Shown piece after piece: positions 29,486 to 33,002 of a stretch of DNA of 64,000 nt. Position numbers and translations under genes: made by a program. The notes under the pieces were generated by a model. The model saw only the letters and a program-made list of their open reading frames with translations, was not told the origin of the DNA and ran no database searches. Source of the stretch: an uncultured delta proteobacterium (lineage in GTDB: Bacteria > Myxococcota_A > Polyangia > Polyangiales > Polyangiaceae); NCBI GenBank assembly GCA_963731595.1, contig CAVSWE010000003.1, positions 108,948 through 172,947 on the forward strand, in the 5' to 3' direction. The number at the start of each line of letters is the position of its first letter. Within the stretch, counting starts at the first letter, position 1.

Positions 29486-30991
29486 TCATTGGTCGAACGC
29501 CCACTTGGGGCGGGGGTGCTCGGGGGGGCGCTGCTCGCAGCCGGCGTTTTTCGCGAGCGGGCCGTCTTGGACGAGGAGGCCGTCGTTCATTCCGGGGTGG
29601 CCCCACACCTTCGACGGACCCTTGCAGCCTTGCGCGATCCACGTCGCCAAGATCGAGAGCTCCTCGTCGGTCATCGACGGTAGGCCCATCGGCATTCCCA
29701 AGATCGCCGGCGGCGACTTCGGATAATCCGGGCGCTCGTAGTCGGCGAAGGCGGGCACGTGATCGCGCTGCTCCTCGACGCGACGCTGGACCATCGCGGC
29801 GACGACGGGCGGCATCGTCTCGCCCTTGCGCGGGATCAAGACCGAGTAGCGCTTGCCGTCCGCGCCGATCGCGCCGTTCACGAGCGCCTCGTAGGTGCGC
29901 ATCGCGAGGCCGATGCCGTGGTAACCGAAGCCGCCTTTGTTTCCGGGGCCGGTGTCTTTCTCGTAGTCGTTCATGTGGCAGTGCACGCAGACCTTCCCGA
30001 GCGTGCGCGCCTTCATCTCTTCGTACGGCACCTCGCGATCGAGGATTTTGGGCGGCTCGACGACGTACGGCGCGGGCGGGGCGTGGAGCTCGGGGTCGCC
30101 GAAGAACAGAAAGTCGCGCACGAGCTCGGCCTCTTCGCGCGTCATTCCGCTCGGCGGCATCGGCGTCCCCGGCGTGATTTGCGCAGGATTCTGAATCCAG
30201 GCGACGATCACGTCGGGGCGCGTTCGCTCCTTCGCGAAGCGGAGGTTCGGCGCGAGCTCGTTCGACGCGCGCGCGCCCTCGAGCGCGGCGCGCGGAACGC
30301 CGGTGTCGAGGTTGCCGAACGTGTGGCACGCCGTGCAGCCGCGCGAGAGAAAGAGCGCCTTGCCCTGGTCGATGCGCGCCTGCGGCGGACGCTTCCCGAG
30401 ATCGGGCGGCGCGTAGCCCGCCGCGTACGGATCCGGCGCGCTCGCGACCGCCGCGAAATAGCGCGCGACCGCCTCGATGTCGTCGGGACCGAGGTGATGG
30501 CGAATCATGCTCTCTTCGAGCGTCGGCCGCTGATCGAACGGCTCGGAGAGGAAGCTAGCGACGAAATCCGCGCGCACGCGGCGCCCGAGGTTCGTGAGGT
30601 TCGGCACCTTGATGAGGTGCACGATGTTGCGCTGGTAACGCTCGAGGAACTCGCGCCCGCTCTTCTTCGCGATCTCCTCGTACTGTCGCTCGCCCGGCTT
30701 GAGCCCCTTCAAGAACTCGTGGCAGCTCGTGCAGTGGTTCGGGCGAACCGGCGCGGGGAGATCGTCGATCTCGTGGCAGCGGCGGCACTCGTTCTTCTCG
30801 AGCACGGCCTTGCCGGCGGCGATCGCGTCGGCGCGGACCTTCGGGTCCCAGGCGACGGTCGGCACGACGAACGCGGCCGTCGTCGGCGCCGGGGCGGCGG
30901 CGTCTCGCGCGTCCTGCGCGGTGTTTCCGCAGTTTCCGCAGCCGGCGAAGAGCGCGCCGAGCGCGAGCGCGGCGATGAGCGATCTCGACAC
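29486..30991 (-). CDS. tetraheme c-type cytochrome lipoprotein
   Basis: ORF 29486-30991. Lipobox MSRSLIAALALGALFAGC. Four CxxCH heme motifs (CRRCH, CTSCH, CTACH, CVHCH). 16 nt downstream of the MVP-like gene on the same strand. Confidence 0.8.
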   Translation of the reverse strand: MSRSLIAALALGALFAGCGNCGNTAQDARDAAAPAPTTAAFVVPTVAWDPKVRADAIAAGKAVLEKNECRRCHEIDDLPAPVRPNHCTSCHEFLKGLKPGERQYEEIAKKSGREFLERYQRNIVHLIKVPNLTNLGRRVRADFVASFLSEPFDQRPTLEESMIRHHLGPDDIEAVARYFAAVASAPDPYAAGYAPPDLGKRPPQARIDQGKALFLSRGCTACHTFGNLDTGVPRAALEGARASNELAPNLRFAKERTRPDVIVAWIQNPAQITPGTPMPPSGMTREEAELVRDFLFFGDPELHAPPAPYVVEPPKILDREVPYEEMKARTLGKVCVHCHMNDYEKDTGPGNKGGFGYHGIGLAMRTYEALVNGAIGADGKRYSVLIPRKGETMPPVVAAMVQRRVEEQRDHVPAFADYERPDYPKSPPAILGMPMGLPSMTDEELSILATWIAQGCKGPSKVWGHPGMNDGLLVQDGPLAKNAGCEQRPPEHPRPKWAFDQ

Positions 30992-31007
30992 GTCGCCAGT
31001 CTAACGC

Positions 31008-33002
31008 TCATTTGCGCGCGGATGATTCCTTCCCATTCGCGGCTCCGTTCGTCGCGAGGAGCTTCCCGAAGGTCGAGCTCGCGCCGAGAGGCAGCGATCC
31101 GAGCAGGCGCTCGACGACCTCGGTGACGCTCTCGCCGCCGAGGATGGCGAGCGGCGACGCGTTCTTCGAGAGCTCCGCGGCGAGCGCTTGGTGCCCGAGC
31201 GTCTTCAGCGTGGCGACGAGCTCCGGCGAGAGCGCGGCCATCTGCTCGCGGAAGGCGGCGACCTGAGCGCCGAGCGCCTTCTGCTCGAGATCGAGCTCGC
31301 GCTCGCGCGCCGCCATGCGCGCGGACTCGGCGACCGCGCCGACGGCGGCCTCCGCTTCGGCCTCGGCGACGTCGAGCCCGCGCTGCTTGCCGATGCGCAC
31401 CGCTTCGGCGCTCATGGTCTGCGACTGCTCCTCGCAGAGCGCGCGCCGCACTTGCTCCTTGAGCCGCTCGGTCTCGAGCTGGAGGAGCTCCTGCCGGCGC
31501 GTCACGTCAGCGACGATCGCGTCCTTCTGCGCGCCGAAGAGGAGGATCTGCACCTCCGCATCGAGGATGCGCGCGTCGAGCACCTCGACGTCGTAGATCC
31601 ACATCCCGTTCTCCTCGAAGTGCCGCCCCGGCCGCGGCTCGCCCTCGCGCTTCTCGCCGAGGATCGCCGCGCGGAGGAGCTCGGTGCTGTTTTGGTAGAA
31701 GCTCTCGATCGAGCACGCGCGCGCCGCGGCGCGCAGGATCGACCCCGCGTGATCGCAGAGGAGGCCCACGTAGTCGTTCACGTTGAACCACCGCGTCGCG
31801 TCGGGCCCGACGAAGGACACGCGGTACGAGACGGCGACCTCGATCTCGTTGTGGTCGCTCGTCTTCAACCGAACGACGTCGGAGACCTTGTTCCCGTCGA
31901 TCTGGAGAAAGCACGTTCGCAGCGTCTTTTCGCTGGATTTGGGGCGCCCGGTCGAGAGCTCGAGGATCTCGAGATCCTCGTCGTGGTCGAGCACGCGCGT
32001 CTGCGGGCCGCGCACGACCTCGCGCTCGCCCTTCGAGGTGACGAGCACGGCGAAGCTCGAGGGCACGTGGATCGCGAGCGCGCGCGACGCGTTGCGATCC
32101 TTCGGCACGCCGTAGAGCGCCGCGCGGTCGTCGCCGAGCGCGCGCGACACGATCTCGACGCGCGTGGGATCGGGCAAGTAGTTCACCGGTCCGACCACGG
32201 TCGCGATCGCGCCGGTCGCGATGTCGCGCACGTAGACGCCCTCGCGCTCGCCGAGCGGGATCGCCGCGACCTCGCCGACGATCTCGACGTTCGCGGTCGG
32301 AAAGAAGAAGCCCTCGCGCTCGGAGACGAACACGTCCTGCCCGGCCTCGTACCGCCCTTCGGGGAGGGACTCGCCGCTCGCCGCGACGAACGACTTCACG
32401 ACGCGAAGGTGGAGCCCCGTCCCCTTGCGCAGCCGGCGCGCCTTTCGAACGTAGCTCCCGCCGGACGCGGGCATCACCTCGAGCCCGGTGACCGGCACGT
32501 AGAAGCTCGTGTCGGTCCCGCGCACGACGAGCTCGGTCCCGATCGGGTGCTCTTGCCCGTCGTCGTACACGCGCACGACGAGGTACTCGTCCTCGCGGAG
32601 CGCGTGCCCGTCGACGACGCGCGCGCGCTGCCCGGGCCAGAGCGGAAACGACGCGGGGCCCGGCACGACAATCTTGCGACCGGTGCGGAGCTCGACCGCG
32701 CTGTTGTTTCCTTTCGTCGGCTTCGCGCCCGCGTCCTTGGGCGGGTTCTCGAGCACGATGTACTGCGACGACGTCGCGGTCGCGAACAGCGCGACGGCCT
32801 GGCCTTCGTCGGCGCGGATCGGGACGAAGCGGCCGTGCTGGTAGTCGACGAGCCGCTCGGTGTTCGACAAGCTGATCTTGGTCGGCCCGACGTAGAGGAC
32901 GATGTCGCCCTTCGTCAGATCTTGGACGTACGCATACTCGTTGGCGGCGACGAGGATGTCGCGCTCGCGTGTGTCGGTCATGCCGACCGGCATTGCAGCG
33001 CG
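31008..33002 (-). CDS. major vault protein (MVP) homolog: vault repeats + SPFH-like shoulder + coiled-coil cap helix
   Basis: C-terminal ~664 aa of ORF 31008-35204, starting at ATG 33002 (MPVGMTDTRERDILVAANEYAYVQDL...; alternative ATG 32990). Repeated ~55-aa beta modules (IVLYVGP..., YLVVRVYDDGQ..., AAIPLGEREGVYVRDIATGAIATVVGP..., LEILELSTGRPKSSEKTLRTCFLQIDG...) resemble eukaryotic MVP repeats. They are followed by an SPFH/band-7-like segment and an Ala/Glu-rich coiled coil (AEAEAEAAVGAVAESARMAARERELDLEQKAL). Upstream part of that ORF is Arg-rich shadow. Confidence 0.8.
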   Translation of the reverse strand, partial: RAAMPVGMTDTRERDILVAANEYAYVQDLTKGDIVLYVGPTKISLSNTERLVDYQHGRFVPIRADEGQAVALFATATSSQYIVLENPPKDAGAKPTKGNNSAVELRTGRKIVVPGPASFPLWPGQRARVVDGHALREDEYLVVRVYDDGQEHPIGTELVVRGTDTSFYVPVTGLEVMPASGGSYVRKARRLRKGTGLHLRVVKSFVAASGESLPEGRYEAGQDVFVSEREGFFFPTANVEIVGEVAAIPLGEREGVYVRDIATGAIATVVGPVNYLPDPTRVEIVSRALGDDRAALYGVPKDRNASRALAIHVPSSFAVLVTSKGEREVVRGPQTRVLDHDEDLEILELSTGRPKSSEKTLRTCFLQIDGNKVSDVVRLKTSDHNEIEVAVSYRVSFVGPDATRWFNVNDYVGLLCDHAGSILRAAARACSIESFYQNSTELLRAAILGEKREGEPRPGRHFEENGMWIYDVEVLDARILDAEVQILLFGAQKDAIVADVTRRQELLQLETERLKEQVRRALCEEQSQTMSAEAVRIGKQRGLDVAEAEAEAAVGAVAESARMAARERELDLEQKALGAQVAAFREQMAALSPELVATLKTLGHQALAAELSKNASPLAILGGESVTEVVERLLGSLPLGASSTFGKLLATNGAANGKESSARK

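Follow-up and report, generated by a model that had tools for sequence, protein, structure and literature searches.

[quoted passage not shown] MVP carries an SPFH-like shoulder, and SPFH cages form domed oligomeric rings. These cages are membrane-anchored, and the genes of the bacterial ones have conserved partners in their operons (NfeD, FtsH). MVP-like proteins have already been reported from Myxococcales, Cytophagales, and Oscillatoriales (bioRxiv 10.1101/872010, 2019); neither experimental work on bacterial MVP homologs nor an operon analysis was found in the literature. The stretch of DNA analyzed here (64,000 nt, referred to as the window) contains an MVP-like gene directly followed by a gene for a tetrahaem cytochrome c lipoprotein.

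The MVP-like gene (31008..32981, minus strand; TGA stop codon at 31010-31008) encodes a protein of 657 aa, which was identified with Pfam, with phmmer searches of the PDB, and by Foldseek comparison of its AlphaFold (AF2) model. The Pfam family MVP_shoulder (PF11978) matched residues 368-478 with 94.6 bits (cut-off 25), covering positions 3-118 of the 118 of the profile. Vault_3 was also above its threshold (31.5 bits; cut-off 28.8), and Vault_4 stayed below (19.5 bits; cut-off 22.9). In the phmmer search, vault MVP chains from rat, human, and rabbit were retrieved at E about 5e-27, residues 142-620 of the bacterial protein aligning with MVP 288-792. The AlphaFold model matched vault MVP chains with Foldseek E values of 1e-31 to 1e-25 (the top figure, 1.6e-31, being that for human brain MVP) and the crystal structures of murine MVP R1-R7 at about 1e-11; SPFH cage proteins ranked after the vault MVP chains. 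Both Vault_3 and Foldseek placed MVP repeat domains on the N-terminal side of the shoulder, and the monomer model showed a single continuous cap helix (479-558) after it.

As for the start of the gene, the second ATG, at 32981, coincides with the N-terminus of 23 homologs (MTDTRERD or MTERD.RERD; M5 invariant), and the first ATG, at 32993, would yield a protein of 661 aa. A previous sequence-only reading of the locus had recognized the co-directional pair correctly; the end it gave for the MVP-like gene, 33002, falls on a CGC codon and is off by 9-21 nt. The family is large (413 matches), with a near-invariant N-terminus that is part of the first fold domain. Hundreds of proteins of 650-720 aa share 59-85% identity with the window protein, and those homologs for which a source is named stem mostly from Myxococcota MAGs. 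The protein is a shorter bacterial variant of MVP, like these homologs. It has neither a signal peptide nor a transmembrane segment (the maximal Kyte-Doolittle mean over 19 residues was 1.28). A conserved noncoding element resembling vault RNA was not detected next to the gene: in blastn of the 300-nt flanks across the loci, similarity was restricted to close relatives or to the beginning of the coding sequence.

The second gene (29486..30991, minus strand) encodes a lipoprotein of 501 aa with four c-type haem-binding motifs. With an in-frame TAG only 12 nt upstream of it, GTG (30991) is the sole possible start codon. The signal peptide, which is also the most hydrophobic stretch of the protein (1.61), closes with the lipobox LFAG↓C (N-terminus MSRSLIAALALGALFAG↓C), and Cys18 of the lipobox is kept in at least 90% of the homologs. 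The four CxxCH motifs (residues 69, 87, 219, and 335) do not vary among 26 homologs with identities as low as 52% and are predicted to be the sites of c-type haem attachment. Residues 208-295 matched Pfam Cytochrom_C (57.9 bits), and this middle class I cytochrome c domain was the only part of the protein (AF2 model: pLDDT 77.8, pTM 0.77) with counterparts among solved structures; the first two CxxCH motifs, near the N-terminus, as well as the fourth (CVHCHMN) and Cys456/Cys485, a pair conserved in the family, had none. The protein belongs to an uncharacterized cytochrome family found mainly in Polyangiales-type MAGs.

Cytochromes of the c type acquire their haem exclusively outside the cytoplasm (Ccm or System II maturation). 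As the MVP-like protein lacks an export signal and the cytochrome bears a lipoprotein signal, the two are not expected to share a compartment and should reside on opposite sides of the cell membrane; judged by these predicted localizations, the common compartment that a shell and its cargo call for is lacking.

Both genes lie on the minus strand, the MVP-like gene upstream, and exactly 16 nt (30992..31007) separate the TGA of the former from the GTG of the latter, which bears out the tight co-directional pair that had been noticed before. Because the genes on either side are on the plus strand, the two constitute an isolated two-gene unit. The spacing alone is not unusual in the window, as 13 of the 45 adjacent gene pairs are co-directional and no more than 30 nt apart. 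No terminator-like hairpin was present on the minus strand within the spacer, and 16 nt leave no room for a terminator plus a promoter, so read-through is likely. Equivalent spacers of 4-23 nt were found in five relatives (L001, L051, L059, L071, and L073). The co-transcription previously put forward is therefore retained as probable, on the strength of these distances. The divergent intergenic region of 159 nt between the MVP-like gene and the gene upstream of it (32982..33140) is, by its position, likely to be the promoter region of the unit. Scanning 29200-33500 revealed no sigma-70-like promoter sites, the consensus being uninformative at 70% GC, and terminator matches, equally uninformative at this GC content, did not exceed the level of shuffled controls and were on the wrong strand.

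How far the pairing extends was assessed at 62 species-level MVP loci, 49 of which were informative, and at 80 metagenome loci of the cytochrome (32 informative), with genes called by a simple GC3-based caller (log-odds version). The cytochrome gene directly followed the MVP-like gene at only three of the 49 loci (L001, L051, and L059), which represent the closest relatives of the window (MVP 74-85% identical), and no locus with an MVP-like protein of 65% identity or less had the cytochrome within 6 kb. Viewed from the cytochrome, the MVP-like gene was upstream at three of the 32 informative loci; among all 80, it occurred upstream only in L069, L070, L071, L073, and L074, and in three of these another gene intervened (an opposite-strand gene in L069, one for 123 aa in L070, and a creatininase-like one in L074). 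Three further loci (L067, L068, and L072) encode a cytochrome 76-77% identical to that of the window, lack the MVP-like gene, and are interspersed with the paired loci in a rough neighbor-joining tree. On a contig of 7.0 Mb (CAWAIF010000003.1), the cytochrome ortholog is located at 0.38 Mb and the MVP-like gene at 6.79 Mb; this cytochrome gene retains the window-like synteny (OPT, a 1058-aa protein, PNPOx, histidine kinase), but a MarR gene is upstream. On JBGAKG010000027.1, about 12 kb lie between the two, and the cytochrome gene overlaps that of a GMC oxidoreductase by 4 nt. Thus, the pair is not conserved in other MVP-containing bacteria outside one narrow clade. One further pair, suspected at the level of 60% identity (P0087 for MVP, P0177 for the cytochrome), was dismissed, the 9145-bp locus L066 containing no cytochrome gene.

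Calling and clustering of the surrounding genes at the 62 MVP loci brought up nothing beyond paralogous families of a generic kind (protein kinases, histidine kinases) and synteny over short ranges between close relatives. Across 56 loci, no neighbor family of MVP was conserved, and the downstream gene was co-directional at 26 loci and in opposite orientation at 20. The MVP-like family behaves as a stand-alone gene without a conserved neighbor. In other lineages, the cytochrome is tightly coupled to different genes: at 17 loci (cytochromes 44-57% identical), it is followed by a gene for a membrane protein of ∼1,030 aa with HEAT and cNMP-binding domains, at a distance between -4 and +23 nt in 15 of the 17. 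A gene for ∼1,067 aa near the cytochrome gene of the window (23237-26440) was considered as a diverged version of this partner and rejected, as there was no similarity.

Each of the two genes belongs to a synteny block of its own. The cytochrome is accompanied downstream by an OPT oligopeptide transporter and a protein of ∼1,050 aa (23237-28476 in the window, where the ∼1,067-aa gene represents the latter), and this block is kept in L001, L051, L059, L063, L070, L073, and L106. A frameshift near 27097-27119 divides the OPT gene of the window (26505..28476, plus strand) into two parts, each of which matches Pfam OPT; a single ortholog of 651 aa aligns with them in two frames. The MVP-like gene is accompanied upstream by genes for a lipoprotein, an FG-GAP-like protein, and a SAM methyltransferase (34535-37430), and it retains this block in relatives down to 63% identity. 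Immediately upstream of the unit, a plus-strand gene (33141..34319) encodes a lipoprotein that combines a collagen-like GPQ repeat with a seven-bladed lactonase β-propeller (Pfam Lactonase, 76.4 bits), which occupies the same position in L059 and is missing from L001, L071, and L073. In six genomes (the window and the five relatives named above), the short spacing between the MVP-like and the cytochrome gene is held while flanking genes change.

We consider it likely that the two genes are functionally independent and came to be juxtaposed through a rearrangement specific to their lineage, in a single small set of related genomes, the named members of which are Polyangiaceae MAGs. In the lineage of the window, the genes formerly situated between the MVP block and the cytochrome block would have been lost, which would have left the 16-nt gap, and as a consequence of this gap, the cytochrome would now probably be transcribed by read-through from the MVP promoter. 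The MVP-like protein would be soluble and cytoplasmic and, by homology, would probably self-assemble into a ring or cage via its repeat, SPFH-like shoulder, and cap-helix domains. The cytochrome would be exported by the Sec/lipoprotein pathway, acquire its haem outside the cytoplasm, and may serve as a membrane-anchored periplasmic electron carrier.

Retention of the 4-23 nt spacing in six genomes would likewise be compatible with co-expression being under weak selection in this clade. A rival reading is a clade-specific functional operon, in which a cytoplasmic MVP-like assembly and a periplasmic tetrahaem lipoprotein are co-regulated for one process without encapsulation; a respiratory or redox-stress microdomain might, for example, be organized by an SPFH-like cage at the cytoplasmic side of the membrane. 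The persistence of the short gaps despite variable flanks speaks for such an operon, as do the SPFH-type shoulder (the model matched HflK/C, prohibitin, flotillin, and stomatin at E about 1e-5) and an unrelated locus, L004, where genes for a seven-haem cytochrome and a 413-aa protein are co-directional with and just upstream of MVP. However, the six genomes are closely related and their flanking blocks are syntenic as well, so retention is to be expected even without selection, inserted genes or a missing MVP disrupt the link inside the clade, outside which it does not occur at all, and the MVP-like protein has no membrane anchor. Furthermore, multihaem ORFs account for only 4 of 437 flanking genes at the other MVP loci, a rate that we judge to be close to the overall level of Myxococcota genomes. 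Such an operon is improbable. It is more doubtful still, to the point of being very unlikely, that in this clade the periplasmic tetrahaem lipoprotein has both its expression and its function linked to a cytoplasmic vault- or SPFH-like cage of the MVP homolog, for instance, one docked under the inner membrane to organize a respiratory microdomain; if true, this tie would be the first functional handle on bacterial homologs of the vault protein.

There is also little to recommend the notion that the MVP-like gene was recently acquired horizontally, or is a decaying pseudo-acquisition, and came to lie beside the cytochrome gene by chance. MVP is indeed the mobile partner relative to the cytochrome synteny block, and the neighborhood of its family is highly variable, but the gene is intact, of full length, and at 70% GC like its surroundings, it belongs to the large and well-conserved family described above, it keeps its own upstream block, and scans with PADLOC and PHROGs returned no matches to defence systems or phages. 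That a closed vault-like compartment of the MVP-like protein encloses the cytochrome, akin to encapsulin or microcompartment operons, is hardly credible: the adjacency itself and the homology of the upstream gene product to a eukaryotic protein forming closed shells would suit it, but only the cytochrome bears an export signal, a conserved one, the link is broken even within the clade and is conserved in neither family, elsewhere the cytochrome family is tightly coupled to another partner, and an alignment of paired and unpaired cytochromes revealed no targeting-peptide-like extension that would distinguish the former.

The pairing therefore has the appearance of a chance local gene arrangement rather than of a shell-plus-cargo system, and the compartment with cargo or membrane-associated particle at which the sequence-only reading hinted is not supported. 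Both gene families are genuine, if so far little understood, and the pairing itself adds little to either. The cytochrome is not a clue to bacterial vault function, the search for which is better directed away from gene-neighborhood inference, and a pull-down designed on the premise of an MVP-cytochrome association can be spared, that premise being false.

Compared with known systems, the locus resembles encapsulin and microcompartment operons in that the gene for a possible cage protein adjoins that for a redox protein. Unlike in those operons, the adjacency is not conserved, the would-be cargo is an exported lipoprotein, and the MVP-like protein shares no homology with shell proteins of the HK97 fold or the BMC type. 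The cytochrome shares its middle domain with class I c-type cytochromes, whereas the remainder sets it apart from class I and multi-domain cytochrome c subunits by the absence of matching solved structures; the overlap with a GMC oxidoreductase gene in one relative recalls complexes of flavoprotein dehydrogenases with cytochrome c. With the SPFH cages (HflK/C, QmcA-YbbJ, prohibitin, flotillin, and stomatin), the MVP-like protein has the shoulder and helix region in common, but in contrast to SPFH-NfeD operons, it has neither a hydrophobic segment nor a conserved neighbor family. It belongs to the bacterial MVP-like group described previously without gene-neighborhood analysis (bioRxiv 10.1101/872010), to which the present survey adds that there is no conserved partner gene. 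From eukaryotic MVP (PDB 4V60, 9R86, and 9Z4W), the window protein differs in length (657 or 661 versus about 860-890 aa), in identity (about 21%), in the number of repeats (six to seven, as estimated from a repeat region that spans only about residues 1-365, instead of the canonical nine), and in its shorter predicted cap helix, and no vault RNA was detected by Rfam at gathering thresholds in the 64-kb window, the extent of this search. It nevertheless shares with eukaryotic MVP the order of β-sandwich repeats, SPFH-like shoulder (PF11978), and long cap helix.

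The MVP-like gene ends on the minus strand at a TGA (31010–31008) and offers two ATG codons, at 32993 (661 aa) and 32981 (657 aa), of which the latter is the likelier start because homologs begin at the equivalent residue and this methionine does not vary across 24 aligned sequences. Downstream on the same strand, after a spacer of 16 nt (30992–31007), follows the cytochrome gene (30991 to 29486; 501 aa), for which the GTG at 30991 is the sole possible start, as an in-frame TAG lies 12 nt upstream. The co-directional, closely spaced pair of the sequence-only reading was therefore confirmed, whereas the outer end it had assigned (33002) is not a start codon. 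Plus-strand genes lie at both flanks, one encoding a lactonase-like lipoprotein (33141–34319), the other a 283-aa lipoprotein (28473–29324), which makes the pair an isolated two-gene unit, and the two genes are, from their sequence layout, likely co-transcribed. Tight spacing as such is common here, with a co-directional gap of ≤30 nt in 13 of the window's 45 adjacent gene pairs. A scan of 29200–33500, uninformative at the ∼70% GC that prevails across the window, revealed no promoter-like sites, and terminator-like matches did not exceed background and lay on the wrong strand. An Rfam search of the whole window and scans with PADLOC and PHROG gave no matches, and comparing the flanks across loci by blastn revealed no conserved non-coding element beside the MVP-like gene. 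Elsewhere in the window, a very long ORF of ∼3070 aa (53263–62481, plus strand) lies within a part of 74–75% GC.

Scanning the MVP alignment against one genome per species yielded 62 MVP-like loci with 6-kb flanks. With the window cytochrome as tblastn query, this cytochrome was found directly 3′ of MVP only in L001, L051, and L059 (MVP 75, 74, and 85% identical to that of the window, respectively), that is, in 3 of the 49 loci having at least 1.5 kb downstream, and within 6 kb it was not found at any locus where MVP was ≤65% identical. The gene 3′ of the MVP-like gene shares its direction at 26 loci and runs the opposite way at 20. When genes were called and clustered, no partner emerged that accompanies MVP family-wide, only the local synteny of close relatives. 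Unrelated ORFs with at least two CxxCH motifs accounted for 4 of the 437 other genes flanking MVP-like loci, a rate we take to be near the Myxococcota genomic background. One locus alone (L004, 2955–8010) has a second, unrelated cytochrome near an MVP homolog: an ORF of 545 aa that contains seven CxxCH motifs and runs in the same direction as the MVP-like gene and a 413-aa ORF, with 27 and 127 nt separating the three.

The reciprocal survey, a metagenome scan for the cytochrome, returned 80 loci. MVP was encoded upstream only in L069, L070, L071, L073, and L074, where the cytochromes are 66–78% identical to that of the window; of the 32 loci at which a cytochrome gene had been called and ≥2.2 kb of upstream sequence was available, 3 have MVP in that position. 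The conservation proposed as a check on the pairing is thus confined to one close clade. Even there, the link is loose: a creatininase-family gene (L074), a 123-aa gene (L070), or an opposite-strand gene (L069) separates the two, and L067, L068, and L072, with cytochromes 76–77% identical to that of the window, have no MVP upstream. L072 has kept part of the MVP-side block, with MVP and its two upstream neighbors missing, and a rough NJ tree places the three loci without MVP in among those that have the pair. Where both genes directly adjoin, the gap is 4, 5, 10, 14, 16, or 23 nt. A functional link restricted to this clade would accommodate such short gaps, and given the interrupted and MVP-less loci, we consider it a minor alternative and improbable. 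Most probably, the MVP-like gene and the cytochrome are two independent genes juxtaposed in a lineage-specific manner.

Each gene has its own companions. Upstream of MVP lie genes for a lipoprotein, an FG-GAP-like protein, and a SAM methyltransferase (34535–37430), a block still recognizable in relatives with MVP identities as low as 63% (L002 and L003), and downstream of the cytochrome lie an OPT transporter and a ∼1050-aa protein (23237–28476). On the 7.0-Mb contig CAWAIF010000003.1, a cytochrome ortholog (67% identical) is located at 0.38 Mb, with a MarR gene upstream and OPT, 1058-aa, PNPOx, and histidine-kinase genes arranged as in the window, and MVP at 6.79 Mb. On JBGAKG010000027.1, both are encoded on the same strand ∼12 kb apart, with roughly ten genes between them, and the cytochrome gene shares 4 nt with that of a GMC oxidoreductase. 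The simplest history would be that two neighboring blocks became flush as intervening genes were lost in the window's lineage. The OPT oligopeptide transporter of the window (26505–28476, plus strand) consists of two overlapping ORFs in different frames (junction near 27097–27119), its orthologs being single genes of 650–660 aa; the split is a frameshift, reflecting either a pseudogene or an assembly error. In the lactonase-like lipoprotein at 33141–34319, a 7-bladed beta-propeller of the lactonase type is fused to a short collagen-like (GPQ)n stretch; in the window and L059, its gene separates MVP from the methyltransferase block, and L001, L071, and L073 lack it at the corresponding site.

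In other lineages, the cytochrome has a different neighbor. At 17 loci with cytochromes 44–57% identical (including L083, 7166–11622, and L078, L079, L082, L085, L088, L089, L092–L094, L096–L098, L104, and L118), the next gene encodes a membrane protein of ∼1030 aa that carries HEAT repeats and, at its C-terminus, a cyclic-nucleotide-binding (cNMP-binding) domain; at 15 of the 17, the gap ranges from −4 to +23 nt, and a 4-nt overlap is frequent. Both genes form a conserved, uncharacterized two-gene module, and the HEAT/cNMP protein is the cytochrome's real partner in those lineages; neither the window nor the loci of the window's clade contain its gene. In a Polyangiaceae MAG (L064, 8001–11164), the ortholog of the cytochrome has a 4-nt overlap with the gene of a GMC-family flavoprotein oxidoreductase, which suggests that the cytochrome there may be the electron acceptor of a periplasmic dehydrogenase.

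The label "tetrahaem cytochrome c lipoprotein" is fair for the predicted protein. Its N-terminus, MSRSLIAALALGALFAG followed by C, is a lipoprotein signal peptide, and the four CxxCH motifs (residues 69, 87, 219, and 335) are invariant in an alignment of 26 homologs down to 52% identity, as is the cysteine pair 456/485; the lipobox cysteine is conserved in ≥90% of them. Residues 208–295 constitute a class I cytochrome c domain (Pfam, 57.9 bits; PDB profile search), the rest being without counterpart in solved structures, and the model is compact (pLDDT 77.8, pTM 0.77). The family is widespread (220 matches), the few named members stemming mostly from MAGs of Polyangiaceae or of other Myxococcota. 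C-type cytochromes that bear a lipoprotein signal peptide are exported and receive their haem outside the cytoplasm (Sec/Lol, Ccm/System II pathways). The MVP-like sequence contains neither a signal peptide nor a hydrophobic segment, and the conserved N-terminus belongs to the fold itself. It is therefore implausible and, with a predicted export signal on one protein only, very unlikely that the MVP-like protein encapsulates the cytochrome; this topology and the counts from both surveys speak against the suggested shell with cargo or membrane-associated particle. An indirect link across the membrane may exist, but nothing supports it.

The MVP-like protein and the cytochrome are members of known, poorly characterized families. 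MVP homologs in Myxococcales have been reported before, uncharacterized (bioRxiv 10.1101/872010), and a literature search found no experimental work on bacterial ones. The family is large (413 matches, 650–720 aa, most without source name), and the named sources are almost all Myxococcota MAGs. MVP-like genes (37–59% identical) are also present on contigs that binning assigned to Methanosarcinales, Clostridia, Blastocatellia/Acidobacteriota, and Planctomycetota (L061, L011, L015, L049, L007, L010, L013, and L048), reflecting either a wider distribution or mis-binning. That the window protein is a genuine major vault protein homolog, as had been proposed, was borne out by Pfam (MVP_shoulder, 94.6 bits, cut-off 25; Vault_3, 31.5 bits, cut-off 28.8), by phmmer against PDB sequences (rat, human, and rabbit MVP at E ∼5e-27; residues 142–620 versus MVP 288–792), and by an AlphaFold2 model (pLDDT 73.5) for which the family alignment served as input. 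The model comprises beta-rich repeats to residue ∼365, an alpha/beta shoulder (368–478), and a single long helix (479–558), and the top Foldseek matches were vault MVP chains (E 1.6e-31 to 1e-25), followed by the murine R1–R7 fragment and, after it, by membrane SPFH cages (∼1e-5). The family's first ∼40 residues (RERDILVA.NEYAYVQDLTKGDIVLYVGPTKISLSNTER; residues 1–40 of the window protein, 32862–32981, minus strand) are almost invariant, even across homologs otherwise only ∼60% identical, despite a pLDDT <50. This stretch may act as an interface for assembly or for a partner; the MVP N-terminus of eukaryotic vaults forms the waist contact. Compared with eukaryotic MVP, which has 860–890 aa and nine repeats, the bacterial protein is shorter (∼657 aa) and has an estimated six to seven.
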